A DNA stretch of 64,000 bases from Elusimicrobiota bacterium. Lineage in GTDB: Bacteria; Elusimicrobiota; Elusimicrobia; UBA1565; UBA9628. The DNA lies in assembly GCA_041662295.1 (NCBI GenBank), contig JBAZSR010000002.1:2130-66129 (forward strand), read 5' to 3'. The notes under the pieces are model-generated. The model had not been told where the DNA came from. It ran no database searches and worked only from the letters and a program-made list of their open reading frames with translations. Below are positions 16,445-47,298 of the stretch, in pieces. Numbering within the stretch: position 1 is the stretch's first letter; the number at the start of each line of letters is the position of its first letter. The translations under genes and the position numbers were made by a program.

Positions 16445-16969
16445 ATGGGCACTTCCCTTGAGCCGCAGAACATCGAAAGCCGCATCCACCTCATCCGCGG
16501 GCATCGGGTCATGCTGGACCGCGACCTGGCGAAAACCTACAGTGTCTCGACCATCCGTCTCAATCAGCAGGTACGCAGGAATCTGGAACGCTTCCCTGAG
16601 GACTTCATGTTCCAACTGACGAAGGAAGCGGCCGTCGCTCTAAGATTGCAAAATGCAATCTTAAAGGCTGGTCGTGGCCGGCACCGAAAATACCTGCCCT
16701 ACGCCTTCACCGAACACGGCGCGGTCATGCTCTCAGCCGTCCTGAGGACCCCCGTCGCTGTCACGGCCAGCATCCAGATCGTTCGCGCCTTCAACAGGAT
16801 GCGAAAGATGGCCGCAGCCCACAAGGACCTAGCCCTCGCCCTCTCAGAACTTGCCAACAAAGTCGCCGGGCATGACGATCAGTTCAAGATCGTCTTTGAC
16901 GCTCTCCAGCGGCTCGAGGAACCGCCTGCCACGCCGCGCAAGCAGATAGGCTTTGTACCGCCGGGTTGA
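16445..16969 (+). CDS. ORF6N-domain DNA-binding protein (intact paralog)
   Basis: [46 protein letters not shown], 174 aa. TATATA lies 6 nt upstream of the ATG. Confidence 0.75.
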   Translation: [174 protein letters not shown]

Positions 16970-17046: not shown

Positions 17047-17118
17047 TGGGCAGTATAGGATTTGAACCTATGACCCCTGTCGTGTGAGGACAGTGCTCTA
17101 CCGCTGAGCTAACTGCCC
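17047..17118 (-). tRNA. tRNA-Val (anticodon CAC), copy a
   Basis: The reverse complement folds as a cloverleaf: GGGCAGT-TA-GCTC-AGCGGTA-GAGC-A-CTGTC-CTCACAC-GACAG-GGGTC-ATAGG-TTCAAAT-CCTAT-ACTGCCC-A. Confidence 0.9.
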
Positions 17119-17227
17119 GGCTGCTCCGTCTGAGAGCCTCCTAGGACAAGAACCAATTCTTGTCGAGTATAGTGCTCTCGTAAAGGCCGTGCTTTGACCT
17201 GTTCTTCACGAATTGTAGCAGATTGCC

Positions 17228-17953
17228 CTAGGGACTCTTCTTTTTCCCCTTGTCGCTTGGCAAAGAGCCGACTACGGTGTCCAACTCCGAGATATCCAGA
17301 TGCCCAGACTCCAGGTGCTTCCATAAATATTCTACTTCGGCGGGAGAGGGGGCTTCTCTTCCCGCCCTTTTGAATGAATCCTTGATGGCAGCAACCCCAA
17401 CTGCTTTTGAAGTCGCACCTTTGTCTTTTATGATTTTCCGCTTAATATCTTCATCAAGCCCCCGCAAGGCCCAATTCTCATTCAAGAAAGTCACTATTAT
17501 TGCGTGTTTGGCCCACCGGGTTCCCAATCGTGACATGCGTTTCCCTAAGTCGTGGTCGCCGGATTCGGCAATGTAGTCGCATAAGGCCGCAAGGGAAAGG
17601 AGCAGGGATTGTGAAGGGACGCCACTGTAGGGGTACTTCTTGAGGGCACCGACAGCCTCCTTGGAACTGGAGAAAGAAAGGGGAATCGCTTCCGGTCTAA
17701 ATGACACATAATCAAGCTGTATCTCCAATTCTTCAAGAAAGTGTTGAATTTGCGACGGTGACAATAGCCCTTCGGGAAAACCTGTTGACGCCTGACTTCG
17801 AAACGATTCTATCCGAGCATAGTGTGCGGTGGTGACTGTCGAGCTATATAAGGATTCAACTACTCCCATTTCGGCACAAGCGAGACCTGGACCAACAAGG
17901 GTAACGAAAACTATCGCAAAGAGTCTCTCGCCGAGAAACCGCTGCATAAACAC
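17228..17953 (-). CDS. Secreted hypothetical protein (island cargo)
   Basis: 241 aa. N-terminal hydrophobic signal. Low GC. Confidence 0.4.
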   Translation of the reverse strand: MFMQRFLGERLFAIVFVTLVGPGLACAEMGVVESLYSSTVTTAHYARIESFRSQASTGFPEGLLSPSQIQHFLEELEIQLDYVSFRPEAIPLSFSSSKEAVGALKKYPYSGVPSQSLLLSLAALCDYIAESGDHDLGKRMSRLGTRWAKHAIIVTFLNENWALRGLDEDIKRKIIKDKGATSKAVGVAAIKDSFKRAGREAPSPAEVEYLWKHLESGHLDISELDTVVGSLPSDKGKKKSP

Positions 17954-18047
17954 CTCTCTATCCTTGCCAATAAATCATCCCATACAACCAGGGCTCGGAC
18001 CCAATGATATCACAGAACTCGCATCTCCTGAGCTTTTCCTTGTTGCA

Positions 18048-18551
18048 TCAGGGCAGGACTCTCTCTGTCGAGTCCGTAACGCCCTCGAAAGGCGTTTCTG
18101 CTTTGTCGGCAAGTTCCTTCAAAATACGCAACGCCTCCGCATCAAGGTCCGCATCTGTCCAATCCCTGTAGACCTCGCCCGCTACCCCTTCAATGCTGAT
18201 ATCAGAACATTGTCGAGGTTTGCCATAACCCCGCTCAATGATATATGTGGCTGCCGTTAGTCGCTCCTGAAGCGACGGAGCAATCAGGTTCCCGCGCCTA
18301 TCTGGGACCTTCTCTGAGCCCTCTGCAACCCGCTCCAAGAAGGCAAAGCCGAATTTGTCTGCCCATTCCGCACACCGCCGAATGTACCCGCTCCCCTTGG
18401 GCCGACCCGGCCCTCCGGGGTTACCCTTCTCAAATGGTCTACCTGGCATAAGTGCCTCCGCGACATTCCTGCGATAAATAACGCCCCACCACACAAAAGG
18501 AAAAATCGCTCCCATGCCCCTTGGGCAAGAAAGACAGCCTGTTCTCGGCAC
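18048..18551 (-). CDS. Hypothetical phage-like protein with GNPGGPGRPKG motif (DUF5681 / terminase-small-subunit-like N-terminus)
   Basis: MPGRPFEKGNPGGPGRPKGSG. The start may be this internal Met. Confidence 0.35.
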   Translation of the reverse strand: MPRTGCLSCPRGMGAIFPFVWWGVIYRRNVAEALMPGRPFEKGNPGGPGRPKGSGYIRRCAEWADKFGFAFLERVAEGSEKVPDRRGNLIAPSLQERLTAATYIIERGYGKPRQCSDISIEGVAGEVYRDWTDADLDAEALRILKELADKAETPFEGVTDSTERVLP

Positions 18552-18641
18552 TGTTCTGTTCCGAATGCTCTTGTTCAGAACCCGGTGGGGGCATGCGTGT
18601 TATTACTCCCTTTGACCTAGCCTTAACATCACCTTGACATC

Positions 18642-19736
18642 TCATTGATATAGCCTTGATGTTGCATTCTGCCTCAGCCTGTCATAAATTGCGCCCCAAT
18701 GCATCATGCTTTCGTTGGCCTTCGCCCACCATGCGGCCGTCATCTTAGTCCTAGGCCGATAGTGAAGTCGGGCAATGCCAATCAAAACCACCTCCGTCAT
18801 ATGTCTGAGCACTGGGAGCAGAATGGGCTCACAATCGAGTTCTTCCCTAGCCCAGTCGAGCTGCCCCGGCGTAACCATTCTGACGGCGGCCTCCTGGGCC
18901 TTGGTTCCCAACTTGTTTTCAATGTCCTCTCCCTGGCCGCAACCGACTGAATGGATTATTTCTGCTTCCGGCTTGTCTGACTCGTACAGGTGGGGAATCC
19001 ACTTCAATATCCCAAGGTCCCGCAACTGACCCAACCGTCTAAAAGCATCTGTTGCTTTCGACTCTCCCCCCGCCTTCTCCTCCTCAGTCAAGGTTGCTCG
19101 ATAATGAGGTTCTAGCGAACCACTACACGACACCCATTCCCGAGGATTTCCAAACCCCCAGACAACATAAGGCCCCTGCTGCCCAACCCGAACCCGCTCG
19201 AATACCTCCCAAGCCAGACTCCGTCTGATTCCGCCGGAATCGGGGAGAAATTGCTCATGGTAGAGGTCAACAAATAGTCGGAGGGTCATTACATCCTGAC
19301 ACTGCCGGACCCGTTCCAATGGGGAATCCTCGCCGTTGGCCCCCACCACAAGGGAATTCGGGAGAAAGACCAACCCGGCCTCTGGAGTCGGTTTGCTTCG
19401 CAAACTATAGAGGGGGCGAGTCCCTTCCTTGTCCTTTGTGATTAGCCTGGCCTTTATGAGCTTGCCTATGGCATCCTTGGCTCGCATCCGGCTGATTCGC
19501 GTGTATGTCTCAATGGCATGAGTGCTTGCCCTTGTAACATCGTTCAGCCTCCCACTGAAACTCGCCATCACCATATAGGCCACGGCAGGGTTGAGACCTA
19601 GGGTGCAGACGCGTTCCCAATGCTTGCCGTCTATGGCAAAGAAATGCCCCACCCCGCAGCTAGACTCTGGGGCCCCACACGGAGCCAACGCAGGCACGGC
19701 ACCCACTATTCCCCTCGCATATTCTCCCGGGGTCAT
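18642..19736 (-). CDS. Hypothetical protein with putative winged-helix segment (replication/regulatory candidate)
   Basis: 364 aa. The segment RASTHAIETYTRISRMRAKDAIGKLIKARLITK looks like a winged helix. Its start overlaps the upstream gene's stop by 4 bp, consistent with an operon. Confidence 0.4.
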   Translation of the reverse strand: MTPGEYARGIVGAVPALAPCGAPESSCGVGHFFAIDGKHWERVCTLGLNPAVAYMVMASFSGRLNDVTRASTHAIETYTRISRMRAKDAIGKLIKARLITKDKEGTRPLYSLRSKPTPEAGLVFLPNSLVVGANGEDSPLERVRQCQDVMTLRLFVDLYHEQFLPDSGGIRRSLAWEVFERVRVGQQGPYVVWGFGNPREWVSCSGSLEPHYRATLTEEEKAGGESKATDAFRRLGQLRDLGILKWIPHLYESDKPEAEIIHSVGCGQGEDIENKLGTKAQEAAVRMVTPGQLDWAREELDCEPILLPVLRHMTEVVLIGIARLHYRPRTKMTAAWWAKANESMMHWGAIYDRLRQNATSRLYQ

Positions 19737-20071
19737 GGCTGCACCCCCTCAAATAGGCCAGGCTGAGCCGACTCAGCCTTATGCCACAACCTCAGAGGCA
19801 AGGCTATTTGCGGCTCGTATCCCGCATAGTGAATGGGCCTGCCCTCTTGTCTAATTCGCCCCAAACTCGCAGAATAGGAAATGCCCGAATCCTTATCGGT
19901 CAGCAGGACTTCGATTACGCCTTGTTTCTGTGCCGCATCTAGTTGAGGAACGCTGAGTGCCCAGGAAGGTTCTGGATATCTCAACTGGTTCTTACTTCGG
20001 ACTGATTTGACCAGCCGCGCCCCGACGATACGTCCAGGAATCTTTTTCGGGTTGAAGGGGGTAGCACTCAT
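19733..20071 (-). CDS. Hypothetical protein (112 aa)
   Basis: 4-bp overlaps at both ends, consistent with an operon. Confidence 0.35.
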   Translation of the reverse strand: MSATPFNPKKIPGRIVGARLVKSVRSKNQLRYPEPSWALSVPQLDAAQKQGVIEVLLTDKDSGISYSASLGRIRQEGRPIHYAGYEPQIALPLRLWHKAESAQPGLFEGVQP

Positions 20072-20289
20072 ACTTTCCCTCCCTTCGATTCTGCCAATAC
20101 CTGATACACCCGGCGTGGCGTGATTCCGAGCAGGCTAGAGAGTTGATTGGCCGTCTTCCCTGCGGCGTGAAGGCGAAGGAGTTTTGCTTTGTCAATTCTG
20201 TCCCGCTTCGGAACATAGATTATTCGCCCTCCAGCCCTAGCCCTCAGCCTCGCCAAACACCTTTTGCATACGCAATCCATCAATGCCAT
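20068..20289 (-). CDS. Small HTH DNA-binding regulator (Mor-like)
   Basis: 73 aa. YVPKRDRIDKAKLLRLHAAGKTANQLSSLLGITPRRVYQVL. First gene of the minus-strand operon. Confidence 0.5.
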   Translation of the reverse strand: MALMDCVCKRCLARLRARAGGRIIYVPKRDRIDKAKLLRLHAAGKTANQLSSLLGITPRRVYQVLAESKGGKV

Positions 20290-20858
20290 ATATAACCTCC
20301 CAGGAAATAAAAATGGCCCGTCAATAGTTAGAACAACTCGTCGGAGCCTAGGTATACCTAGACCCTAACGGCTTTTCTTTCCTATCGACAAGCCTGGGTG
20401 GTTATCCGATGGACCGTCCGTATTGGGTTATCGGACTGAATTGTGCGGCCCCTTTCGGGGTTGTCCCACATCCAGCCCGGCCCACGGACTTCTTCGGGCC
20501 AACAGCACTTGCTTCATGTTCCTACACCATCCGCACATTGGGCCCTTGCGGGTTATCCTAGGGCGAAGCATGAACACGATGCCCCAATAACGGAGGGGCC
20601 TCCCGTTTGTGTCATCAACTCAAAGAACAGGGGAAACCTTCAATCAATTATACCAGTTCAACTTGCCTTACCACTGAAAAACCGCCGGGAAATCCTTTGA
20701 CCAGTTCTTCACCCCATGCAACAAACTATGCCAGCCGGAACCTCTCCCTCCCCTTTAGCTAAGCCCCTATGCAGTCCAACGACGAGCCTTACCGATGTCC
20801 CTAAAAAGCACCGTCAATTGCTTGACCCCTTTGAGGAACAAGTAATAGACTCATCCTG

Positions 20859-21248
20859 ATGACCAAATTAAATGCTACGCGTGGATTTCTTTTGGCTCTA
20901 GCCCTGGCACCCCTCGGCGGGTGCGCCACAACACCCAAGAGTAGCCCAGGCAATCTTACCCACGGCGGGGTCCAACTCTTTCTCAAGAAAGGCGTAACCA
21001 CGCAAGCAGAGGTCCTTGAGAAATTTGGTGCCCCAAACATCGCTACGGTTGATGGTGCGGGGCATGAAGTCTGGACCTACCAAAAGCACGCCTCTGTTTC
21101 CCATGAGTCTTCTGGGTATGCGACGATTGTCCTGTTTGGAGGGTCTTCCAGCGGTTTTGAACAATCGTCCCGCACGATGACATTGATTATTAAATTTAAC
21201 GACACAAAGGTCGTTTCAGATTTCAGCAGCATGTACTCTAGCTTCTAG
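20859..21248 (+). CDS. Lipoprotein (unknown function)
   Basis: Lipobox LGGC. 129 aa. AT-richer than the surroundings. Confidence 0.5.
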   Translation: MTKLNATRGFLLALALAPLGGCATTPKSSPGNLTHGGVQLFLKKGVTTQAEVLEKFGAPNIATVDGAGHEVWTYQKHASVSHESSGYATIVLFGGSSSGFEQSSRTMTLIIKFNDTKVVSDFSSMYSSF

Positions 21249-21256
21249 GAGCATTT

Positions 21257-21709
21257 ATGAAAAAATTCATTGCAGTACTCCTACTTGCAATTTTGTCTGG
21301 CTGTGCATCGGCTCCAAAATTGACCTCGCTTGAGTTGCAGGCGATTCAGAAACGACAATATGATTCATCGAAACAGATTGTTTTCGCATCCGCAATGTCG
21401 GTCTTTCAGGACCTGGGCTACACCATCAAGAGCGCGGATATACAAACTGGACTGATTCAAGCTCAGAGCCCGACGGAAAGCACCGTATTTTTCGGGTCCT
21501 ACATGAGCAATGTTGAGGCAACCGCTTTTGTTGAAGAACTATCACCCGCCAAATCAAGCATCCGCTTAAACTTTGTTCAGGTAAATGAATCCTCCTCTGG
21601 ATATGGAATGAAGTCCAAGTCGGACACCCCCATCGTGGACTCCAAGGTTTACCAAAACGCTTTCACAAAGATTCAAGAAGCGATTTTCATTCGCACGAAT
21701 ACTCAGTAA
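21257..21709 (+). CDS. Lipoprotein (unknown function)
   Basis: Lipobox LSGC. 150 aa. AT-rich codon usage. Confidence 0.55.
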   Translation: MKKFIAVLLLAILSGCASAPKLTSLELQAIQKRQYDSSKQIVFASAMSVFQDLGYTIKSADIQTGLIQAQSPTESTVFFGSYMSNVEATAFVEELSPAKSSIRLNFVQVNESSSGYGMKSKSDTPIVDSKVYQNAFTKIQEAIFIRTNTQ

Positions 21710-21741
21710 CCCCTCCCCCCTGACTAGCCTTCCCTAAAAAG

Positions 21742-22719
21742 CTAATCCAACCTGACTCGCTTCCTCTCGCCAGGGAGAGGCCCCATCTTATCCAATGGGC
21801 TAGCTCGACGGTGTTCTGTCAAAGCATCATCGTCGGTCATGTTGACATAGTTCCTCACCATGTCGAGGGAGGAATGCCCCAAGAGCTTTTGCAAGGCCAT
21901 GATGTCCCCCCCATTCCTGAGGAATTGGAGAGCAAAGAAGTGCCTCAACGCATGGGGAGAGAGCCTATCAGCGGCAATCCCTACCGTCCTGGTGTAGCGT
22001 TTCATCCTGTGGGCGAAGTGTGTCCGTTTCAGCGTCCTTCCAAAACGGTCAATCCATAGGCTATCGCATCCCTCGACGGTGCCCCTCTTTCGCATCCAGA
22101 GCATGAGGGCATGACGGGCAGTGCTCCCGAAGGCAATCCGGCGCTCCTTCCCTCCTTTCCCCATAACCGCGATGGTGTTGCTTCCCCAATCAATCTCGGA
22201 GAGCTTCACGGAAAGGGCCTCGCTGATTCTCAGCCCTGTATCGGCCAGAAACAGTATTAGGGAATGGTCCCGAAGGCCGAGAGCTTTGCCTGTGTCAATC
22301 ACTTCGAGGATACGCCTCAATTCCTCGACGGTGATAGGCTTTAGGAATCTCCGCTCCCGCCTGGGATGTTCTACCTTTTCCATCGGGTCGAGGATTATCA
22401 GCCCGTCCCGGTGTAGGAAGTGCCAGAAGGTTCTGAGTATCTTGAAGATACAGGCTACCGTCGTGGGTTTGTTGCCTCTCTCCTTACAGTGGTCGAGGAA
22501 GGCCCTCAGGTGTGGGGATTGAATCTCACCGGGCGAAAGGTTGCCATTCTCTGCTACCCAAGCCCGGAACAATCTCAACCGGACAGCATAGAGGTCGATA
22601 GTCGGCTGAGAAAGATTGAGGCTCTTGCACCGCAAGAGAAACATCCTCGCGGCAGTGTCCCAATTGAGGGTTTGCGGGGTAATGCTTGCGATATTCAACC
22701 TGTCCATGTGCTCCTCCAA
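21742..22719 (-). CDS. Tyrosine-type site-specific integrase/recombinase
   Basis: N-terminal core-binding (SAM-like) domain. The catalytic R...HALRH...LLGHSSLDMVRNY motifs with the Tyr nucleophile. 325 aa. Confidence 0.85.
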   Translation of the reverse strand: MEEHMDRLNIASITPQTLNWDTAARMFLLRCKSLNLSQPTIDLYAVRLRLFRAWVAENGNLSPGEIQSPHLRAFLDHCKERGNKPTTVACIFKILRTFWHFLHRDGLIILDPMEKVEHPRRERRFLKPITVEELRRILEVIDTGKALGLRDHSLILFLADTGLRISEALSVKLSEIDWGSNTIAVMGKGGKERRIAFGSTARHALMLWMRKRGTVEGCDSLWIDRFGRTLKRTHFAHRMKRYTRTVGIAADRLSPHALRHFFALQFLRNGGDIMALQKLLGHSSLDMVRNYVNMTDDDALTEHRRASPLDKMGPLPGERKRVRLD

Positions 22720-22823
22720 AACAGGTCGAGTATAGTGCTGTCATGGGCCCCAAAAGGCCCAGAAAAAGCACCTTCCAGACTTTACGCTAGGTGGGTTCTC
22801 CGACGGAGAGGACAGCGAGGAAT

Positions 22824-22895
22824 GGGCAGTATAGGATTTGAACCTATGACCCCTGTCGTGTGAGGACAGTGCTCTACCGCTGAGCTAACTGCCCG
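22824..22895 (-). tRNA. tRNA-Val (anticodon CAC), copy b
   Basis: Identical to copy a over the whole gene plus the GGC 5' flank. Confidence 0.9.
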
Positions 22896-22949: not shown

Positions 22950-23405
22950 TCATGCCGGACCGGAGGAACAGCGCCGGTAGAGGCCGTTCTTGCGGACCAT
23001 CAGCTTGTTGATGATGAATTCGCGGCGCAGGGTGCAGACGTCCTCGTGGAACCGGCGGAGGGTGTCGTTGACCTCGGCTTCGGTGTAGACCCTCCCTTGA
23101 AGGAAATTCGAGGCCAGCCGCTCGAGGACGAGGAGGCGCTTGCCCCGCTTGGCCGGGATGCTGACGAGCCTCCCGTCCGCGCTGAAAAAACTCTGGAGTA
23201 CGCGGTCCTGATCGCTGAGCCGGTTCGAATGCCGCTCAAGCCACTCGCGCACCGAGGCCTCCTCGACCCGCCAGTCCTTGCCGAGCTTGTACGCCTTGAT
23301 CTCCCCGCTTTGGAGCTTGCGCAGCACGACCTGAGTGTTCATCCGGAGGATCTCGGCCACTTCCGCGGCTGTCAGCAGCTTGAGGTCTCTGATCTCGCTC
23401 TTCAT
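22950..23405 (-). CDS. DNA-binding protein: excisionase/MerR-type HTH plus DUF2087-like C-terminal domain
   Basis: The N-terminus LLTAAEVAEILRMNTQVVLRKLQSGEIKAYKLGKDWRV matches excisionase/MerR-type HTHs. 151 aa. Confidence 0.5.
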   Translation of the reverse strand: MKSEIRDLKLLTAAEVAEILRMNTQVVLRKLQSGEIKAYKLGKDWRVEEASVREWLERHSNRLSDQDRVLQSFFSADGRLVSIPAKRGKRLLVLERLASNFLQGRVYTEAEVNDTLRRFHEDVCTLRREFIINKLMVRKNGLYRRCSSGPA

Positions 23406-28565: not shown

Positions 28566-29921
28566 TTACGCCGCGGGCCTTCGCTTTGGGAGGAGCCCCG
28601 GCCCTGAGGCGATGGACGCCAGCTCACACGCCAGGATCCCGGCCTGATTCTCGCGCGTATACTTGGCGATCTCCCCAGGAATTCGGCCGGGGGTAGGGGA
28701 ATTTCCTTCCGCGAACGCCTTGTACGTCCTGACGATGACATCTTGGATATCCGCCACGCTGGAGACCACGACCCCCATCCCGGTCTCGCGAAGGACCAGG
28801 TCCATGGCGCCCCCCTTTTTTCCTATGGCCAGGATGGGGCGCGTTGAAGCCAGGTACTCGAAGAACTTGCCCGGAAATCCTCCGCCGGAGCCCGGGGTGT
28901 TCCAGTTGATGACCAGGAGCAGATGCGCCCGCCTTTGAAGGCGGACCGCCTCGGCCTGCGGCACGGGCCCATGGCACTCAACCAAGTCCGCCACGCCCGA
29001 TTCCCGCGCCATCTCCTCCGTCCGGTCATGGTCGGGCCCGTAGAAAACGACCCGGAGCCCTCCAGGGAGACGGCGCCCCTCCCGCAGGTCCCGGACCGCC
29101 TCGAAGAGGTCACGCGGATCGATCTTGCCTGGATAAAGCATCCCGGTGAACAGGATGGTGAACCGCTCGAAGAGCGGCAGGGGCTCCGACTGGCAGTCGG
29201 GCTCGAAGCCATTGGAGACCACGAAGACGGGCTTGCGATGAACGAGCCTCAAATACTCCGCCAGGGGCTCCGAGACCGTGCACAGCGCGGAGGCCCTCCT
29301 CACGACCCTGGCCTCGACCACCTCCCTCATCCGCTGGAGCCAGGGACTCTGCTCTATCAGAGGGTTGCCGCTCCACAGGTCGCGGAAATCCGCGACCCAG
29401 GGGACCCCGAGGGCCTTCTGGACCGAGCTGGCCAGAAGGTGCGATGAGAACGGCGCCGAACTCGACAGGATGACATCAGGCTGGATGGATCGGGCGAATC
29501 GGATAGCCTGCCTCCGGCCAAGGACGGCCCAGGGCCACGCGGAGTCGGGGAACGCCAGCAGGCCGTCGTAGAGAGCCATCCCCGCCCTGAGCGGAGAAAA
29601 CCCTCCCGCCCGGGCCGCCCGCATCCTTGTCACGCCTCCAGCCCGGAAGGCGTTCCCAAGGAGCCGCGGGATGGCCCGGCTGAGGTCGAATCCAGCGGTC
29701 CTGCACACCGCTGCGGCGGACTCGTCCGCCGGAGCCTCCCCGTCAGAGGGCACCCAGGCGCTCGGACGCACCGAGACCACGTAGGGCTCCCAGCCCTTCT
29801 TGGGGAGGTGCCTGACGAAAGAGACGACCCGGGCCGTACCGATCGCGTTGATCGGGGGATACATGTAGCTGACGATCAATATCCTGCGCCCGGGAGATGC
29901 CGCCATGGATCCACGCCGCAC
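28566..29921 (-). CDS. Glycosyltransferase family 4
   Basis: GT-B fold. Motifs ILFTGMLYPGK and EYLASTRPILA. The start may be the internal MAASPG. Confidence 0.75.
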   Translation of the reverse strand: MRRGSMAASPGRRILIVSYMYPPINAIGTARVVSFVRHLPKKGWEPYVVSVRPSAWVPSDGEAPADESAAAVCRTAGFDLSRAIPRLLGNAFRAGGVTRMRAARAGGFSPLRAGMALYDGLLAFPDSAWPWAVLGRRQAIRFARSIQPDVILSSSAPFSSHLLASSVQKALGVPWVADFRDLWSGNPLIEQSPWLQRMREVVEARVVRRASALCTVSEPLAEYLRLVHRKPVFVVSNGFEPDCQSEPLPLFERFTILFTGMLYPGKIDPRDLFEAVRDLREGRRLPGGLRVVFYGPDHDRTEEMARESGVADLVECHGPVPQAEAVRLQRRAHLLLVINWNTPGSGGGFPGKFFEYLASTRPILAIGKKGGAMDLVLRETGMGVVVSSVADIQDVIVRTYKAFAEGNSPTPGRIPGEIAKYTRENQAGILACELASIASGPGLLPKRRPAA

Positions 29922-29951
29922 GTTGGCGAGATGCTACCATATGTCGGAATG

Positions 29952-31073
29952 ATACAGAGGACGTGGGCCGTCTTGATCGCCGGATTCGTCCTTCTCCTGG
30001 GACTGCTGCTCCTTTCCAGCGATGGGATCCATCACGCCAATGACACCGCGTCGTATCTGCAGAGCGCCGCCAACGTCGCAGCGGGATTTCCCCCTGTCGG
30101 GGTCCGGACGTCGAGCATCGGCTATGCCGCCCTGATCGCTGCCTCCCGGGCCTTGGGGCTCGGCTTGTGGGGCGTCATGGCGATCCAGACCCTCCTCTCC
30201 GTGCTGGCTGCAAGGGCGCTATTCTCCCTCGGCCAGAGGCTCCACAGCGACCATGCCGGCTTTCTCGCTGCGCTGTTCCACCTCTGGAATCCGGACATCG
30301 TCCGCTGGCACGGCTACATCCTCACGGACTCCATCTACACTTCGCTCGTCGTGCTGGTCACGTGGAGCCTCGTGCGGGCATGGGAGAACCGGACCTTGAC
30401 GGCGCATCTTGCCGCGATGGCACTGGTCGGGCTTGCCGCATTCACGCGGATCAATGGCTGGCTGTTGGTGCCAATCGCGCTCTATCATTGCGCGTCGGTG
30501 CTGCAGGTCTCCGCGGCCAAGAAACTCCTGCTTGTCTCAGTCTGCCTGGCTGCCTGCGCCGGGGCTGGGCTCCTGGCCCTGGATTCCGCAATCCTAATCT
30601 CGGAGACAAGCCCTCTCGAGAGGCTCTACAACGGCGAAGTCTTGGGCAAGATCGGCCGCTGGCGCATCCCGATGCCCGCCGCGCCGGCTGGCGCAGGCAT
30701 CGCGGAAGCGCCCATGTACATCGCATCCCACCCTCTCTCCTGCCTCCGCTTGGCAGGGACGCGCCTCGCGGTGGAGCTGTGGCACGTTCGGCCGGAGTAT
30801 TCCGCGCTCCACAACGCCCTCATCGCCTCATTTTATCCCCTGATGCTCCTGTTTTCCCTATGGACCATGTGGCGGTTCCGGGCCGAAGCGCTCGTCCGCC
30901 TCTGCGCCGTCATCGCAGGAGCCCATCTGCTGCTCGTCTCCATGACGTTCCCCGACCATGACGGCCGGTATCTCCTCTTCATCTTTCCCCTGATTGGACT
31001 CTTGGCATCCGCTGCCATCGGCTCCATTGCCCGCGGAGTGCGCCCCCCGATGCCAGGAACACGCTCCCCATGA
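29952..31073 (+). CDS. Multi-pass membrane GT-C glycosyltransferase (GT39/GT83, ArnT/PMT-like)
   Basis: About 11 TM helices. The first periplasmic loop carries HANDTASYLQSAANV. Confidence 0.55.
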   Translation: MQRTWAVLIAGFVLLLGLLLLSSDGIHHANDTASYLQSAANVAAGFPPVGVRTSSIGYAALIAASRALGLGLWGVMAIQTLLSVLAARALFSLGQRLHSDHAGFLAALFHLWNPDIVRWHGYILTDSIYTSLVVLVTWSLVRAWENRTLTAHLAAMALVGLAAFTRINGWLLVPIALYHCASVLQVSAAKKLLLVSVCLAACAGAGLLALDSAILISETSPLERLYNGEVLGKIGRWRIPMPAAPAGAGIAEAPMYIASHPLSCLRLAGTRLAVELWHVRPEYSALHNALIASFYPLMLLFSLWTMWRFRAEALVRLCAVIAGAHLLLVSMTFPDHDGRYLLFIFPLIGLLASAAIGSIARGVRPPMPGTRSP

Positions 31074-33704: not shown

Positions 33705-37762
<4,058 letters not shown>

Positions 37763-38668
37763 ACCTCTCGCGCTTAAAGCGCCTGCTCGTCGGACGCGGG
37801 TCGCCGACCCAGGCCGCCTTCCTGGCCCTCGCACGGCTCGGCCAAGTCCGCTTCGAGTCGTGCCTCGCCGTGGACGGCCACCGGCTCCACGCCCGGACCT
37901 CGGACCGGGCCCTGGCGCTCCTCCTGCACCGCCTGGGCCTGGCGGACACGGCCGAGAAGCGCTGGCTCTCCGAGAACGCGCGCCCCGGCATGACCTGCCT
38001 CGACATCGGCGCCAACATCGGGATCTACACGCTCTATCTCGCGCGCCTGGCCGGACCCGCGGGCCGTGTCGTGGCCTTCGAGCCCGAGCCCGAGAACTTC
38101 GACCTCCTCGAGAAGAACGTCATCGCCAACGGCTACGGCAACGTCGAATGCGTCCGCAAGGCGGTCAGCGACCGCGCCGGGACCGCGGACCTCGGCTTCT
38201 GCGAGGAGAACCGCGGAGACCACCGGCTGGGCGGCCAGGGCCGGAGCACGGTCGCGGTGGAGACCCTGCGGCTCGACGACTATTTCCCCCCGGCCAGCAG
38301 GGTCGACGTCATCAAGATGGACATCCAGGGCTCCGAGCTTGGCGCCATGGAAGGCATGCGCCGCCTGCTCCGGGACAACCCGGGCGTCCAGATCGTGGCC
38401 GAGTTCTGCCCCTCCCTCATCGAGGCCGCGGGCGGCTCGGCCGAGGCCTTCCCCGCGTTCTGGAGGGCCGAGGGCTTCAAAGCCTTCCTGCTCAGCGAGG
38501 GCCTGCGGCCCGTCTCGCTCGAGGACGCGTCCTCCTTCATGGACATGGGCCGGAACCAGGGCTACCTCAACGTCCTGCTCCGCAGGCTCCGGGACTGAGC
38601 TCAACGACGCCGTCTCTCCCCGCCTGCGAACGGGTACAATATCAGGATCCGGTCCCTGGAGGAACGTC

Positions 38669-41512
38669 ATGTCCTACCGCTTGAAGAAGTCCGCCGCCTC
38701 CACCCTCTCGAGCCTGCTCGCCTTGCTGCTCCTCCTCCAGCCGCTGGCCGCCGCCGTGCCCCAGCGCATCCTCTACCAGGGGACCCTGCGCCAGACCGGC
38801 GGCCTCTACACCGGCAGCGCCGCCTTCCTCTTCCGCATCACCGACTCCTCCGGCGGGGTCGAGTACTGGAGCTCGGGCTCCACCGTGGTGGCCGTGACCG
38901 CCGGGCTCTTCCGCTACCCCCTGGGCGCGGACAACCCCGGCACCGGAGGGGTCGACGAATCAGCCTCCTTCCTCACCATCGACTGGTCCAACATCGCCCC
39001 CTACGTCGAGGTCACGGTCAACGGGGATCTCCTCTCCCCCCGCGAGGAGATCCACTCCGTCCCCTACGCCATCTTCAACTCCGCTGCGACCGACATGGTC
39101 AACCCCCGGGTGCTCCGCGCCGGAGACGCCATGACCGGCCAGCTCACCATCGCGGGCTCCACCCTCACGGTCACGGGCAGCGCCTTCTCGGTCGGAGGCT
39201 CGACCCTCGCGGTCAAGGACGGCAGGCTGGGGATCGGCGTCACCGCGCCCCAGACGCCGCTCCATATCGAGAACAACGGCGCCAGCCTCGTCAAACTGGT
39301 CAACACCGCCGTGACCGCCAACGGCTGGGGCATCCGGCATCTCGCCGGCAACATCCTCGCCGTCACCGACAACCAGAGCGCGTCCGACCGGATGTACTTC
39401 GACGGCTCCGGCAACGTCGGCATCGGCCCCGTGTCCGCGCCGCTGAGCAGGCTCCACGTCCTCAACGGCGACATCCGCGTCTCGACGGAAGCGGGCCAGC
39501 CCTCCCGGGGAGTCATCTTCCAGGATGGCACCACCCTGCTCACCGCAGGAGGCGCCAATGCCTGGGCCATGGTGGACGCCTCCTCGGTCGCCAGCGCGGT
39601 CGCGGGCAACGTCGGGATCGGCACCACTCACCCGGACGTCAAGCTCCACGTGGCCGGCAACATGCACGTCGACACCTCCGGAACCTCGTCTTTGACCCGC
39701 AACGTGACCTTCAAGAGCGGGGGCTCCGCCCTGGACTGGGCCTCCTACGGCGGAGGCTGGGCCCCGGGCCTCATGCTCCAGGGCTCGACCCCGGCAGGCG
39801 CGGACAGCGCCTCGGAGTTCCTCTTCCTCTCGGCCTTGGACGACACGCAGGCAGCGCTCATCGCCTCGGGCAAGGACCTCGAGATCTACACCGGCGCGCC
39901 CCTGGGCTCTTCGGGCAGCAGGTCCCTCTACCTCGGGGGCACGGGCAACCTCTTCCTCGGCGTGGACGCCGGCAGGGTTCACGCGGCGGCCAACGGCACG
40001 TTCGTCGGCTACCAGGCGGGCTACAACAACACGACCGGGTCCAACAACACGTTCCTCGGCGGCAGGGCCGGACGGGCCGACACCACGGGCAGCGACAACG
40101 TGTCCGTGGGGATGGAGAGCGGCCTCACGAACGCCGCGGGCAACAGCCTCACCCTGCTCGGCTTCCGGGCCGGCTACAGCAACACCGGCAGCAGCAACAC
40201 CTTCGCGGGCTATCTCGCCGGCTACTCCAACACCTCGGGCCGCTACAACGTCTCCGTGGGCAACCGCGCCCTCTACGGCAACTGGACGGGCGACGAGAAC
40301 ACCGCGGTCGGCTATCAGGCAGGCGAGAGCCAGCTCTCCACCGGCGTGACCTTCCTCGGCTACCAGGCGGGCAGGGCCAACACCACGGGCGCGGGCAACA
40401 CCTGCATCGGCAGGTCCGCCTGCCAGGCCAACACGACCACGGACTACGGCACATTCGTGGGCTACAGCGCGGGGATCAGCAACACCGCGAGCTACAACAC
40501 CTTCATCGGCTTCGACGCCGGCTATTCGAACACCTCGGGCGCCAACAACGCCTTCCTCGGCTTCTACTCCGGCTACACCAACTCGGCCGGGACGAGGAAC
40601 ACCTATATCGGGACCTCGGCCGGCTATTCCGCCACCGGGAGCGACAACACGTTCCTCGGCCAAGCCGCGGGCTACAGCACGTCCTCCGGCGGCCAAAACA
40701 CCGTGCTGGGCTCCCAGGCGGGACTCAACCTCGGGACCGGAGCCGGCAACGTGCTCCTGGGGTACATGGCCGGCTACAACGAGACAGGCTCCAACAAGCT
40801 CTACATCGACAACTCCAACACCGCCTCGCCCCTCATCGGGGGCAATTTCAGCACCAACGAGGTCAGCGTCAACGGGGTCCTGGGCGTTGGGACCACGGAC
40901 CCCAACGAGAGCTTCCGGCTCGACGTCCGGGGAACGATCCTCGTCACCGACGCCACGGCTTTCGAGGGCGGCATCATCACCCACTCCGCCAACGGCCTCC
41001 TCCTCTCCGGCGTGGACGCGACCAAGGCGGTCATCCTCGCGATCAACGGCACCGAGAAGGCGCGCCTGCACTCCAGCGGGAGATTCGGGGTTGGGACGGA
41101 TAACCCCAACGACGGCATGGTGGAGGTCAAGGGCGGCTCGGTGTGCGTGGACACGAACTCCGACGACTCCGCGACCTCGTGCGTCGCCAACGAGTCCGAT
41201 GAGAGGCTCAAGCGGGAGATCGAGCCCATCACGGGCGCGGTGGAGAAACTCAAGAGGCTGCGCGGGGTGACTTTCGACTGGCGGTGGGACGAGTTCGAGC
41301 AGGTCCGGCGCTTCAAGGCCCTGCCCCACTCCATGGGCCTCATCGCGCAGGACGTGGAGAAGGTCTTCCCTGCGGCCATGAACGAGGAGATCGGGGTCTA
41401 CAAGTCAGTCAACTACAACGCCCTCGTGGGCGCCCTGGTCGAGGCGGTCAAGGAACAGCAGGCTGAGATCGACTCCCTCCAGGAGAAGGTGCGCCTGCTT
41501 GAGAAGCCCTAA
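38669..41512 (+). CDS. Secreted tail-fibre-like repeat protein with C-terminal peptidase-S74 intramolecular-chaperone autoprocessing domain
   Basis: RBS GGAGG. Signal peptide. More than 20 copies of an about 18-aa repeat, GYxAGxxNTTGxxNTFLG. The C-terminus has SDERLKREIEP...MGLIAQDVEKVFPAAM, a Ser-Lys dyad context of endosialidase-type chaperone domains. The 1148-aa ORF in the track is an upstream-extended artefact. Confidence 0.75.
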   Translation: MSYRLKKSAASTLSSLLALLLLLQPLAAAVPQRILYQGTLRQTGGLYTGSAAFLFRITDSSGGVEYWSSGSTVVAVTAGLFRYPLGADNPGTGGVDESASFLTIDWSNIAPYVEVTVNGDLLSPREEIHSVPYAIFNSAATDMVNPRVLRAGDAMTGQLTIAGSTLTVTGSAFSVGGSTLAVKDGRLGIGVTAPQTPLHIENNGASLVKLVNTAVTANGWGIRHLAGNILAVTDNQSASDRMYFDGSGNVGIGPVSAPLSRLHVLNGDIRVSTEAGQPSRGVIFQDGTTLLTAGGANAWAMVDASSVASAVAGNVGIGTTHPDVKLHVAGNMHVDTSGTSSLTRNVTFKSGGSALDWASYGGGWAPGLMLQGSTPAGADSASEFLFLSALDDTQAALIASGKDLEIYTGAPLGSSGSRSLYLGGTGNLFLGVDAGRVHAAANGTFVGYQAGYNNTTGSNNTFLGGRAGRADTTGSDNVSVGMESGLTNAAGNSLTLLGFRAGYSNTGSSNTFAGYLAGYSNTSGRYNVSVGNRALYGNWTGDENTAVGYQAGESQLSTGVTFLGYQAGRANTTGAGNTCIGRSACQANTTTDYGTFVGYSAGISNTASYNTFIGFDAGYSNTSGANNAFLGFYSGYTNSAGTRNTYIGTSAGYSATGSDNTFLGQAAGYSTSSGGQNTVLGSQAGLNLGTGAGNVLLGYMAGYNETGSNKLYIDNSNTASPLIGGNFSTNEVSVNGVLGVGTTDPNESFRLDVRGTILVTDATAFEGGIITHSANGLLLSGVDATKAVILAINGTEKARLHSSGRFGVGTDNPNDGMVEVKGGSVCVDTNSDDSATSCVANESDERLKREIEPITGAVEKLKRLRGVTFDWRWDEFEQVRRFKALPHSMGLIAQDVEKVFPAAMNEEIGVYKSVNYNALVGALVEAVKEQQAEIDSLQEKVRLLEKP

Positions 41513-41557: not shown

Positions 41558-42694
41558 ATGATAGACAAGCGCAACGAAGCCCTCGCGAAGATCCTCGTCG
41601 ACTACTCCACCAAGCTCAAGAAGGGCGACGTCCTCTACCTCGAGATCAAGGGCAAGCCCGCCCTGGAGCTGGGCAAGCACGTCATCCGCCTGGCGGCCGA
41701 GCGCGGGGCCACCCCCTTCTACTACTACAACGACGAGTCCCTGGGCAGGCAGTGGATCGCCCACGCCTCCGAGGCGCAGTTCAAGACCATGGCCAAGCTC
41801 CATCTGCACCTGATGAAGAAGGCCGACGCCTACATCGGCATCCGCGGCTCGGACAACCCCTTCGACCTGGCCGACATGCCGGGCAAGCAGATGGCGATGA
41901 TGAACACGCTCTTCTACAAGCCCGTACACTTCGACGAGCGGGTCCGCCGCACCCGCTGGGTCGTCATGCGCTACCCCACGGACTCCATGGCCCAGCTCGC
42001 CAAGACCTCGCAGGAGAAATTCGAGGACTTCTACTTCGACGTGTGCTGCGCGGACTACCCCAAGATGTCCAAGGCCCAGGACAAGCTCGTGGCGCTCATG
42101 AACCGCACCGACAAGGTGCGCATCAAGTCCCCGGGCACGGACCTGTCCTTTTCCATCAAGGGCATCCCGAGCGTCAAGTGCGACGGCGAGCGCAACATCC
42201 CGGACGGCGAGGTCTACACCGCGCCGGTCAAGACCTCGGTCAACGGCACCATCCGCTTCAACACCCCGACCATCCATGACGGCGTGGTCTACACCGGCAT
42301 CGCCTTCACCTTCAAGGACGGGAAGATCGTCAAGGCCGCGGCCGACGCCAACGAAGACAAGCTCAACAAGGTCCTCGACACGGACGCAGGCGCCCGCTAC
42401 GTCGGCGAGTTCGCCATCGGGGTGAACCCCTTCGTGCTCGAGCCCATGATGGACACCCTCTTCGACGAGAAGATCGCGGGGTCCTTCCACTTCACGCCCG
42501 GCTCCTGCTACGACGAGGCGGACAACGGCAACAAGTCCGCCATCCACTGGGACCTGGTCCTCATCCAGCGGCCCGAGCACGGCGGCGGCGAGATCTGGTT
42601 CGACGGCAAGCTCGTGCGCAAGGACGGCAGGTTCACGGACGCGGCCCTCGAGAGGATGTTCTCCAAGGAAAACCTCAAGGGGAGGCCGGCATGA
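41558..42694 (+). CDS. Aminopeptidase, M29 family (AmpS/PepS-like)
   Basis: 378 aa. Typical M29 N-terminus (ALAKILVDYSTKLKKGD) and C-terminal metal-binding HWD motifs. Confidence 0.7.
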   Translation: MIDKRNEALAKILVDYSTKLKKGDVLYLEIKGKPALELGKHVIRLAAERGATPFYYYNDESLGRQWIAHASEAQFKTMAKLHLHLMKKADAYIGIRGSDNPFDLADMPGKQMAMMNTLFYKPVHFDERVRRTRWVVMRYPTDSMAQLAKTSQEKFEDFYFDVCCADYPKMSKAQDKLVALMNRTDKVRIKSPGTDLSFSIKGIPSVKCDGERNIPDGEVYTAPVKTSVNGTIRFNTPTIHDGVVYTGIAFTFKDGKIVKAAADANEDKLNKVLDTDAGARYVGEFAIGVNPFVLEPMMDTLFDEKIAGSFHFTPGSCYDEADNGNKSAIHWDLVLIQRPEHGGGEIWFDGKLVRKDGRFTDAALERMFSKENLKGRPA

Positions 42695-44899: not shown

Positions 44900-46108
44900 T
44901 CACGGAGCTCTCCCGCGCCCGGCCAGGATGGCCCGGATCCGGCTCGCCCCCCCTCCGGCCAGGACCAGCATCAGCGGCATGAGCGGCACGCGGTAGCGGA
45001 TGGGAGCGTGGCTGACCGAGTAGGTAGCGGTCACGACCAGCATGAAGACGGCCATCCAGCGGACCCACGGGTTGGCGCGTCCGAACCAGAGGCCCAGCAG
45101 AGCCAGAGGGACGAGCCAGCCGTCGCTGAGGAGCGCCAGCAGCCGCACCAGGGAAGCCTTGTGGGTATAGGCCCGGTCGCGGGGGAGGATCCTCCATAAG
45201 CCGAAGAGCCTGCCTGCGCAGTCCTTCAGGAAGAACCACGGCCGCTCTTTAAGGATGCTCATGGAGGCGGCTTGAAAAGCCTTGTTGCTCTCGGCCTCGG
45301 GGAGGCTGGCCATGCGCTGGAACTCGGTGTCGTCGCCGGGGTTGCCGAGGATGCGGTTCTGCTCCTCGGTGCCCAGGGCCTCGTAGGGCACGGTCAGGGC
45401 CCAGTACATCTGGATGCCGACCAGGCTCGAGGCCGGGATGAAGGAGCGCATGACCGCGAGGTTCCGGCCGACCCACACGCCGACCAGGGCCGCGACCGGG
45501 AGGCAGAAAGCCAGGAACCATTTCCAGCGCCACGGCCTTCCCCACCCCGCGGCCAGGCCGGCGATCCCCACGGCCGGAGCCATGGCCCCGTTGGTCAGGC
45601 ACATCCACCCGGCAAGCCCGCCCGCTCCGGCCAGCAAGCGCCATTCCCGAGCAGGGACAGCGCGCACCAGCAGGAGGAAGACCCCGGCCGCGAGGAAGGA
45701 CAGCAGGGATTCGCGGAAGAAGTACGCGGAGTAGTAGATGAAGTACGGGTACACGACAGAGGCCCAGAACGCGAACCTGGCCGCCCAGAGATCGAAGAGC
45801 GCCAGGGCCAGGAGATAAACCAGCCAGGACGTGGCAGCGGAGAGGAGGCTCTGGCCCACGATCACGGACCAGGGGCTCTTGCCCGAGACCGCGTAGAGGC
45901 CCGCGATCAGCAGAGGATAGCCGGGCTCGCGCACCGCGGTCGCAAGAGGCGGCTTCTCAGCGTAGATCCCGTGGTCGATGAGGTTGACGGCCAGGATCTC
46001 GAAGTCGAGGCTGCCGAAGAGCCGGACGCCGTCGTACTGCAGGGCCCCGAACCCGACCCGCAGGGCCAGGGCCGCCAATAGCCCGAGGAGAAGCTCCCTC
46101 CTGCTCAA
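44900..46108 (-). CDS. Multi-pass GT-C glycosyltransferase (ArnT/GT39-83-like), TTG start coupled to the upstream stop
   Basis: 402 aa. Periplasmic loop NLIDHGIYAEKPPL. TTG at 46106-46108 overlaps the GT2 TGA (TTGA). The low-complexity 5' part of the 769-aa ORF was trimmed. Confidence 0.55.
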   Translation of the reverse strand: MSRRELLLGLLAALALRVGFGALQYDGVRLFGSLDFEILAVNLIDHGIYAEKPPLATAVREPGYPLLIAGLYAVSGKSPWSVIVGQSLLSAATSWLVYLLALALFDLWAARFAFWASVVYPYFIYYSAYFFRESLLSFLAAGVFLLLVRAVPAREWRLLAGAGGLAGWMCLTNGAMAPAVGIAGLAAGWGRPWRWKWFLAFCLPVAALVGVWVGRNLAVMRSFIPASSLVGIQMYWALTVPYEALGTEEQNRILGNPGDDTEFQRMASLPEAESNKAFQAASMSILKERPWFFLKDCAGRLFGLWRILPRDRAYTHKASLVRLLALLSDGWLVPLALLGLWFGRANPWVRWMAVFMLVVTATYSVSHAPIRYRVPLMPLMLVLAGGGASRIRAILAGRGRAP

Positions 46109-47298
46109 GACGCCCCCCCCTCCCCGCGCGAGGACGGAAGGTGGCGCGCGAGGTCCAGGGTCACGCCGAAGGCGGCGAGCACGGTGCCGGAGATGACGGC
46201 GAGGCTGCCGGTCAGCACGTAGATCCAGTGCTGGTGGATCTGCCGGCTCGTGACGTATTCGATGATGGTGCGGGTGTTGAGGAGCACGCCCGCGAGCACG
46301 AGGACCACGCCGACCGCGAGGGAGTAGTCGCGGACCCTGGGCCGGTCCCAGAACCCGGAGCCCCGGCCGACCGCGGCGTCCGAGAGCTTCTGCGCGATGC
46401 CCCCGAAGGTCAGGCAGATGAGCGAGCACACCGCGAGGGTCACGATGGCGAGCAGTCGGTAGATCATGTCCTCCGGGTTCTCCAGACGCCTCAGGGACAG
46501 GTACTGGGCGATCGGGCCGGCGCCGTAGGCCAGGGCGGTCAGGGCGAAGAGAAGACCGGCGGGACCGAAGATGCGCAGGGGGTAGTACGCGAAGATGACG
46601 CCCAGGATGACGCGCAGGAAGCGCATGCCGTCGGCCAGCACATTGAGCTTGGACCGGCCCATCCGCTCGGCGTAGGCGATGGGGACCTCCACGATCCGAG
46701 CCCCCATGCAGGCGGCGCGCGCGGTCATGGCGGGCGTGAAGTGCAGGCCCTCGGGCAGGGGCAGGAGCCTGGGCAGGAGCCTGCGGGAGAAGAGCCGCAC
46801 ACCGCTGGCCGTGTCGGTCACGGCCACACCGGTGAGCCTCGAGATCACGGCCGCGTAGAAGCGGTTGCCCAGCACGCGCACCCGCGGCATCTGGGAGCCG
46901 TGGTGGAGCCGGCCGCCGATGGCGAGGTCCGCTCCGGTCCGGACGAGCTCGCGGTGCAGGTCGATGAAGCAGAGCGGGTCGATGGTGCCGTCCGCGTCCA
47001 TGAAGGCCAGGAGTCCTCCGCGCGCCGCGGCAAATCCGGTCATGAGCGCCGCCCCGTAGCCCCGGTTGACCGGGTGGCTGACGACCCGGACACGCTCGAA
47101 GCCCGCGGCGATCCGCCGGGTCGCGTCCTTGGAGCCGTCGTCCACCACGAGGATCTCCACCGCATCGAGGCCCGTCTCCCGGCGCAAAGCCTCCTCGGCG
47201 TCCAGGCACTGCTTCAGCGCCGAGGGGAGGGCCTCCTCCTCGTTGTAGGCGGGCAGGACGATGGTCAGGGTCTTGGCGTCCGCGGCGGCTTGGGTCAT
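46105..47298 (-). CDS. GT2 polyprenol-phosphate glycosyltransferase (ArnC/GtrB/Dpm1-like) with C-terminal TM helices
   Basis: LTIVLPAYNEE...VVDDGSKD...DADG plus a C-terminal two-TM anchor. ATG at 47296-47298. Overlaps the upstream gene's stop (ATGA). Confidence 0.75.
   Translation of the reverse strand: MTQAAADAKTLTIVLPAYNEEEALPSALKQCLDAEEALRRETGLDAVEILVVDDGSKDATRRIAAGFERVRVVSHPVNRGYGAALMTGFAAARGGLLAFMDADGTIDPLCFIDLHRELVRTGADLAIGGRLHHGSQMPRVRVLGNRFYAAVISRLTGVAVTDTASGVRLFSRRLLPRLLPLPEGLHFTPAMTARAACMGARIVEVPIAYAERMGRSKLNVLADGMRFLRVILGVIFAYYPLRIFGPAGLLFALTALAYGAGPIAQYLSLRRLENPEDMIYRLLAIVTLAVCSLICLTFGGIAQKLSDAAVGRGSGFWDRPRVRDYSLAVGVVLVLAGVLLNTRTIIEYVTSRQIHQHWIYVLTGSLAVISGTVLAAFGVTLDLARHLPSSRGEGGAS

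Follow-up and report, generated by a model that had tools for sequence, protein, structure and literature searches.

A gene for a predicted secreted fibre in a groundwater Elusimicrobiota genome

We analysed a 64-kb stretch of contig JBAZSR010000002.1 (the window hereafter), which belongs to the uncultured metagenome-assembled genome (MAG) of a groundwater Elusimicrobiota bacterium, and focused on an open reading frame (ORF) of 947 residues that NCBI names 'tail fiber domain-containing protein'. The gene lies among genes of glycan biosynthesis and has a GC content of 0.678, against 0.659 for the window. Its product combines a signal peptide, an N-terminal beta-sandwich, a shaft, a tandem repeat array, a distal tip and a C-terminal Peptidase_S74 domain (Table 1), and it is probably a chromosomal, secreted, mosaic trimeric cell-surface fibre of the same kind as the mosaic adhesive trimer (MAT) fibres of Bdellovibrio.

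The protein begins with MSYRLKKSAASTLSSLLALLLLLQPLAAA/VPQRILYQG, the slash marking the predicted cleavage. A basic n-region (KK) precedes the sole hydrophobic stretch of the whole protein, which is followed by an AxA site, and a lipobox Cys was not found in this signal peptide. The same layout is kept ahead of a conserved VPxxIxYQG in all of the aligned homologues (21/21). These sequence features and their conservation are the basis of the call, and they bear out the initial annotation, which had placed a signal peptide on the protein.

Domain organisation of the fibre

At the C-terminus, the initial annotation had proposed an autoprocessing chaperone domain and had named its Ser-Lys dyad as a point to check. 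We found that the domain belongs to the Peptidase_S74 family by profile score, dyad, position and fold. The PF13884 profile matches aa 843-904 (E=6e-15; 55.7 bits, cut-off 22) over positions 1-57 of its 58, the SDERLK motif is intact, and both Ser843 and Lys848 are invariant in an alignment of 15 homologous C-terminal halves (alignment A2). An alignment to the C-terminal end of gp37 from phage S16 (6F45) also places SDERLK opposite SDRRIK (SDxRxK). When aa 420-947 were modelled with AlphaFold2 (AF2), the S74 part received a predicted local distance difference test score (pLDDT) of 70-85, and its best structural match in Foldseek was the ICA domain of eukaryotic MyRF (7DC3; E=5e-4, probability 1.00, target-normalised TM 0.68, rmsd 2.7 Å), with 3GW6 and 3GUD lower in the list at non-significant E of 0.3-0.7. 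MyRF is a membrane-bound transcription factor, and only the autoprocessing domain is shared with it. A hidden Markov model search that took in every window ORF from 60 aa upwards found no second fibre or S74 domain.

Between the shaft and the tip lies the repeat array, with the consensus FLGYQAGYSNTTGSNNT. The tandem array described in the initial annotation is thus present, but its size was overstated, since we count 17 units of 16-17 residues and not more than 20 of about 18. The spacing is strictly 16/17/17, which gives a 50-residue super-period, and the autocorrelation peaks at lags of 17 and 50, the 50-residue signal being the stronger one in the window fibre. This pattern probably reflects the duplication of a three-repeat block. 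As a feature of the family the 50-residue period was rejected, most homologues having a plain 17-residue period. Tandem Repeats Finder (TRF) detected no tandem repeat at the DNA level across the array, so a recent duplication of the repeats was rejected as well and the array is old. The AF2 model of aa 420-947 shows one short strand per 17 residues in the repeats (pLDDT 75-93), and Foldseek returned no significant PDB match for this solenoid.

Ahead of the array, the shaft carries the capping loops LGIGVTAPQTPLHI at aa 187, VGIGPVSAPLSRLHV at aa 250 and VGIGTTHPDVKLHV at aa 315, and with the loops at aa 738 and 806 of the tip the capping-loop motif has five matches in the fibre. The motif is given for MAT fibres as V-G-G/N-pi-x-x-P-x-x-x-L (PMC10769870). 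At aa 739-841 of the tip the monomeric AF2 model drops below a pLDDT of 50, as might be expected of an obligately intertwined trimer, though such low confidence can have other causes.

The N-terminal region, at aa 31-133, is modelled by AF2 from a 21-sequence alignment as a beta-sandwich with a pLDDT of 88-97. Foldseek found no PDB fold match for this N-domain, and the N-domains of MAT fibres are likewise described as having no PDB homologue (Caulton et al. 2024, PMC10769870). The N-domain is also without a Pfam model in the copy of Pfam that was searched. The NCBIfam model Bdello_MAT_N (NF053851) is matched by 19 of the 21 homologous N-termini, with a best E of 4.6e-11.

Table 1. Features of the fibre gene, of its surroundings and of related loci. 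Positions are those of the window, or of the locus named in the second column.
Feature	Sequence	Position	Strand	Remarks
Fibre ORF	window	38669-41512	+	ATG 38669, stop 41510-41512; 947 aa
Ribosome-binding site GGAGGA	window	38658..38663	+	5 nt 5' of the ATG; direct sequence reading
Sec-type signal peptide, aa 1-28	window	38669..38752	+	predicted cleavage AAA/VP
N-terminal beta-sandwich, aa 29-133	window	38753..39067	+	AF2, segment-wise BLAST; proposed cell-proximal anchor
Proximal shaft, aa ~150-428	window	39116..39952	+	beta-rich segments, three capping-loop motifs
Repeat array, aa 429-712	window	39953..40804	+	17 tandem units of 16-17 residues, Asn/Gly/Thr-rich
Distal tip, aa 713-842	window	40805..41194	+	capping loops at aa 738 and 806; mature fibre C-terminus (predicted)
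Peptidase_S74 chaperone/autoprotease, aa 843-947	window	41195..41509	+	PF13884; long terminal helix aa ~916-945
Predicted catalytic Ser843	window	41195-41197	+	codon; SDERLK motif
Predicted catalytic Lys848	window	41210-41212	+	codon; SDERLK motif
FkbM-family methyltransferase	window	37726..38598	+	PF05050, E=2e-21; ends 70 nt 5' of the fibre gene
M29 aminopeptidase	window	41558..42694	+	PF02073, E=1e-57; starts 45 nt 3' of the fibre gene
PMT_2-family protein (GT-C)	window	29808-31070	+	Pfam
PMT_2-family protein (GT-C)	window	44903-47209	-	unusually long, 769 aa; PMT_2 domain in the C-terminal half
Small integrative element	window	17047-22894		between two identical 72-nt tRNA-Val(CAC) genes
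tRNA-Val(CAC), left copy	window	17047-17118		72 nt, identical to the right copy
tRNA-Val(CAC), right copy	window	22823-22894		72 nt, identical to the left copy
Tyrosine integrase	window	21745-22719	-	inside the integrative element
Anti-repressor-like gene	window	16445-16966		just outside the left tRNA-Val copy
Excisionase-like gene	window	22953-23405	-	just outside the right tRNA-Val copy
Module region beside a paralogue	L001	3509-9825
Module region beside a paralogue	L002	2624-9492
Module region beside a paralogue	L003	3133-9493
Module region beside a paralogue	L010	6675-7855
Module region beside a paralogue	L012	297-7004
ORF fragment, 65 aa	L002	13055-13248		weak Peptidase_S74 match; directly downstream of P0003, at the contig end

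A probable distant relative of the Bdellovibrio MAT fibres

Upon comparison with known systems, the closest known analogue proved to be the MAT fibres of Bdellovibrio bacteriovorus, in particular their S74 subgroup, for example Bd3182 (PMC10769870), a relation absent from the initial annotation. MAT fibres resemble the window protein in having a signal peptide ahead of a conserved beta-rich N-terminal domain of ~100-130 aa, for which the window protein gives a sub-threshold match to the MAT model. Both are long fibres (~900-1000 aa) that carry capping loops of the form VGxGxxxPxxxL and end in an S74 domain with SDxxxK, and both have paralogues in which a constant N-domain is combined with swapped tips (S74 or other). 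As in the window protein, two capping loops stand shortly before the cleavage site, an arrangement reported for the solved Bd3182 tip (PMC10769870). The likeness extends to sequence, with fibre aa 207-409 aligning to the solved MAT fibre Bd2133 (8OND, E=1e-7) in a phmmer search of PDB sequences, and to a chromosomal location that is not prophage-borne. Unlike the MAT fibres, the window fibre comes from a groundwater MAG without evidence of predation, so that the prey-handling role of the MAT fibres is not transferable to it, and it bears a 17-unit NTTG-type array that it shares with phage fibres and that is not mentioned in the passages describing Bd3182 (PMC10769870). We file the window fibre as a distant, non-Bdellovibrio relative of the MAT fibres, one that NCBI annotation had already flagged generically.

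Resemblance to trimeric autotransporter adhesins of the YadA type lies in what would be a trimeric, repeat-rich, Asn/Gly/Thr-rich surface fibre, and some homologues are labelled trimeric autotransporter adhesin in JGI annotation. Pfam searches of the fibre gave no match to PF03895 or PF05658 at E <=1; since the anchor barrel is absent and an S74 domain stands at the C-terminus instead, the fibre is not a trimeric autotransporter. Neither PF18962 nor TIGR04183 was matched in the Pfam and NCBIfam searches, and for lack of such a C-terminal sorting domain (CTD) the fibre is not a cargo of the type IX secretion system (T9SS).

From this architecture a maturation path can be proposed. The Sec signal peptide would export the chain, after which the S74 domain, by analogy with characterised members, would trimerise the chains and template the folding of the tip. 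The S74 domain would then cleave itself at Ser843 through Ser843 and Lys848 and release the chaperone of ~105 residues, leaving a mature fibre of aa 29-842 (~814 residues). This S74-driven step is reported as experimentally shown for endosialidase (endoNF), phage T5 and Bd3182 (PMC10769870). The N-terminal beta-sandwich may hold the mature fibre on the cell envelope, and the shaft, the 17-repeat solenoid and the exposed tip would attach to an external ligand, for which a surface glycan, of another cell or a substrate, is the likeliest candidate.

Several observations weigh against grouping the window protein with the MAT fibres. Bdello_MAT_N matches fibre aa 20-89 with E=1.5e-7 and 31 bits, below the curated NCBI cut-off of 60 for this Bdellovibrio-specific model, and covers positions 4-76 of 162, that is, the first half of the model only; such a score fits distant homology and not membership of the Bdellovibrio subfamily. 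Furthermore, no Bdellovibrio-labelled protein appeared in the searches with the N-domain profile or with the N-terminal half. Trimerisation, autocleavage and surface location are all inferred, the structure models being monomeric, and AF2 renders the repeats as a single-chain solenoid, so that the picture of an intertwined triple helix may hold for the shaft and the tip only. A further difficulty, shared with Bdellovibrio, is the passage of a periplasmic fibre across a diderm's outer membrane.

A very large N-domain family with exchangeable distal parts

Next, we investigated how widely the N-domain occurs. A profile built from window positions 38669-39193 (profile A1) matched 102,676 cluster representatives at E <=1e-3, and 67,677 at E <=1e-10, among 1.84 billion searched (clusters at 50% identity). 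The named matches come from Elusimicrobia, Zixibacteria, Eisenbacteria, Chloroflexota, Myxococcota, Bacteroidota and DPANN archaea, the DPANN-labelled proteins being assigned to Nanoarchaeota, Pacearchaeota and Aenigmarchaeota. Judging from the cluster counts and the breadth of the named matches, the family is very large and largely uncharacterised, its characterised fibres so far being those of the predator Bdellovibrio, and the window fibre is an ordinary member of it. Some members are short, 250-300 aa in length, and end in C1q or F5/8-type-C tips. A genome scan with the single fibre protein returned only relatives from groundwater Elusimicrobia.

The paralogues indicate a mosaic construction. 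When the fibre was compared segment by segment with BLAST, its N-domain was 87-89% identical to that of P0002 and P0005 and 70-74% identical to that of P0003 and P0006, whereas the distal regions of these four proteins were at most 39% identical to the fibre or unrelated to it. P0002, which is 88% identical over the N-terminal half, is the likely orthologue, and P0003, P0005 and P0006 are full-length paralogues without S74. Within P0005 (L001 10001-12394), aa 677-777 give a weak, sub-threshold match to a C1q/TNF-like domain (E=0.007). TNF-like tips are described for the Bdellovibrio fibres Bd2439 and Bd2734 (PMC10769870), and a C1q-like end in P0005 would, by analogy, mirror the division of MAT fibres into S74 and non-S74 classes. 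The 65-aa fragment behind P0003 could belong to a second fibre gene or be part of a split gene.

Several fibres can occur in one MAG, for instance WC943_16640 with WC943_14475 in one and HY924_00735 with HY924_14995 in another. Additionally, tandem adjacent pairs of S74-type fibres were found in other lineages, at L011 7001-11606, L015 1938-5600 and on the JGI contig of P0050. Other domains recur among the homologues: P0014, P0017, P0027, P0036 and others carry a precomputed match to PF26696 'PTL_trimer', some have a Por_Secre_tail sorting domain, and P0031 has YadA_head repeats. The literature search returned nothing relevant on S74 fibres in Elusimicrobia or on PF26696 'PTL_trimer', and a search of the Caulton 2024 supplement for non-Bdellovibrio homologues gave nothing.

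A cell-encoded fibre with a phage-type distal half

Upon examining the relation to phages, we observe that the two halves of the protein behave differently. For the repeats and the C-terminus, a PHROG search gives tail-spike, tail-fibre and baseplate families, and a tblastn search of 50,697 phage records matched the fibre in 637 of them. Among the phage matches listed, all fall within aa ~314-947 and most start from about aa 427 on, at 30-40% identity, and none of the 637 matching records covers at least 80% of the protein. A scan of IMG/VR gave no close relative of the fibre. On sequence grounds the distal half (aa ~427-947) thus appears to be a module common to phage tail fibres and the proximal half to be cellular only. 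The statement in the initial annotation that the repeats are typical of phage tail fibres agrees with the PHROG matches and with an identity of 31-40% to such fibres.

Chaperone-bearing phage fibres suitable for comparison are endoNF of K1F (3GW6), gp12 of phi29 and GA-1 (3GUD), pb1 of T5 (4UW8), gp37 of S16 (6F45) and the tail protein of Roseobacter phage CRP-1. With these the window fibre has in common the S74 fold, the Ser-Lys dyad and a distal half at the identity given above, and by analogy the expected mechanism of trimerisation-dependent folding followed by self-cleavage. It differs from them in its Sec signal peptide, in a cellular-only proximal half of ~400 residues in place of a virion-attachment domain, and in not lying in a phage genome.

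These matches, together with the NCBI name of the protein, raise the question of whether the gene encodes an orphan receptor-binding protein of a prophage, tailocin or contractile injection system that assembles onto a phage-like particle. We consider this most improbable. Phage fibres assemble in the cytoplasm, whereas the window protein has a Sec signal peptide, and its proximal half is known from cellular proteins only. When neighbouring genes and unknown ORFs of the 64-kb window (~7.7 kb of the 71.7-kb source contig lies outside it) were scanned with Pfam and PHROG, genes for a capsid, portal, terminase, tail or baseplate were absent, and phage-structural Pfam annotation was equally absent from nine independent homologue loci (0/9; the P0050 contig, syntenic with L011, was counted together with it). 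Given the native GC of the gene, the signal peptide, the absence of phage structural genes and an N-domain common to many cellular paralogues, the fibre is host-encoded, in line with the initial annotation, which had placed it outside any prophage.

The only mobile element in the window is a small integrative element between two tRNA-Val(CAC) copies, within a low-GC stretch at about 16-24 kb, which differs in GC content (0.527 versus 0.659 for the window) and in which the Pfam and PHROG scans detected no phage structural genes. A link between the fibre and this element was rejected, as the two are ~16 kb apart with tuf, nusG and rplKA between them and the element has no structural genes.

The glycan neighbourhood

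Pfam annotation confirms that the fibre gene sits between an FkbM methyltransferase and an M29 aminopeptidase within a glycan locus, as initially described. Upstream lie genes for a family 4 glycosyltransferase (GT4), a PMT_2 protein (GT-C), a second GT4, a Wzx-like flippase, GH77, an Fcl-like epimerase, a methyltransferase-GT2 fusion and FkbM, and downstream those for the M29 aminopeptidase, a hypothetical protein, GDSL, a PMT_2 protein of 769 aa, GT2, AsnB and GT9. The two PMT_2 proteins are GT-C membrane glycosyltransferases on either flank of the locus. No terminator-like site was found between the FkbM, fibre and M29 genes on the plus strand, so that their co-transcription is possible, which by itself is no proof of an enzyme-substrate relation.

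The initial annotation had gone further and suggested a possibly glycosylated fibre, with the glycan made by the neighbouring genes as its substrate. The fibre could be a glycoprotein or a binder of the cell's own glycan, with the GT-C (PMT_2), GT2 and GT4 enzymes and the methyltransferases decorating Ser, Thr or Asn of the repeats or building an envelope glycan that anchors it; such a coupling could add to the MAT-type reading. For it speak the co-directional position of the gene 70 nt after FkbM with no terminator-like site between, the two PMT_2-family GT-C proteins in the locus, and a mild enrichment of N-x-S/T sequons (18 versus 11.7 +/- 3.0 expected from shuffled sequences). One unrelated S74-type lineage (L011 and the P0050 contig) also has its tandem fibre pair beside a GT4/sulfotransferase/GT4/GT2 cluster.

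Comparison of the loci points the other way. At five Elusimicrobia loci that encode the same N-domain, no glycan genes lie close by, and four further S74-type homologue loci (L004, L013, L014, L015) have unrelated neighbours. The glycan genes of the window have no homologue in the nine distinct loci compared (L001-L010, with L005 a sub-range of the L001 contig), and neither the FkbM-fibre nor the fibre-M29 adjacency was found in relatives, in a comparison that took in no locus for the likely orthologue P0002. The sequon excess follows from the NTT/NTS of the repeat consensus, a structural feature conserved in all homologues whatever their context and in phage fibres, and surface-related genes often cluster without an enzyme-substrate relation. 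Since the close paralogues stand in a locus of another kind, described below, and not in a glycan locus, the proposed glycosylation link is unsupported, and we regard a coupling to glycans as possible but unlikely.

The same setting could suggest a secreted trimeric depolymerase, similar to a tailspike, that trims or remodels an exopolysaccharide or O-antigen produced by the surrounding genes. Many exopolysaccharide operons encode hydrolases or lyases, S74 was first described on endosialidases, some of the phage matches are annotated 'endo-N-acetylneuraminidase', and the gene does sit within a glycan locus. We consider a depolymerase very unlikely, as no catalytic domain was found by Pfam, NCBIfam or PDB sequence search, all Foldseek matches to enzyme folds of the beta-propeller or right-handed beta-helix type had E >1, the 17-residue repeat is a fibre-type module, and the association with the glycan locus is not conserved.

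A two-component and PorV-like module beside the paralogues

When examining the five Elusimicrobia loci with the same N-domain (L001/L005, L002/L007, L003/L006, L010 and, more distant, L012; 34-86% identity to the N-domain), we found a fibre paralogue directly behind a histidine kinase and a response regulator in every one (5/5). Hypothetical genes and a TPR gene (TPR by Pfam annotation) also lie there in the four loci with enough upstream sequence. An NCBIfam scan of the module genes, which took in L001 and L012, identified among the hypothetical genes a PorV/PorQ-family outer-membrane protein in both (111 and 156 bits, cut-off 90). The scan also placed a T9SS type A sorting domain on a further protein, just at threshold in L001 and below it in the L012 counterpart. 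The 64-kb window contains no homologue of the PorV-like, TPR or CTD genes. The two-component, PorV-like, TPR and CTD genes could form an apparatus for the export, anchoring or regulation of the fibres.

Implications

For the window gene itself the result is mostly confirmatory: known S74 fibres already allow its architecture and likely maturation to be predicted. Of more interest are two leads outside this gene, the size of the N-domain family and the conserved PorV-like/two-component module beside the Elusimicrobia paralogues. Joined together, these leads would make MAT-type fibres a pan-prokaryotic surface system (more than 100,000 clusters, DPANN archaea included), with groundwater Elusimicrobia maintaining sets of several paralogues whose tips can be exchanged and which the module apparatus would serve, while for the window copy the glycan of its own locus might be an anchor or a modification; as a whole this joint proposal is doubtful.

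Regarding annotation, a prophage should not be assumed wherever a genome of this kind carries the name 'tail fiber domain-containing protein'. The N-terminal domain, a proposed anchor, defines a very large family, and, if the MAT-type reading of the window fibre is right, as seems probable, the recently described cell-encoded phage-like adhesive fibres of the predator Bdellovibrio have a counterpart in a non-model phylum that is uncultured.

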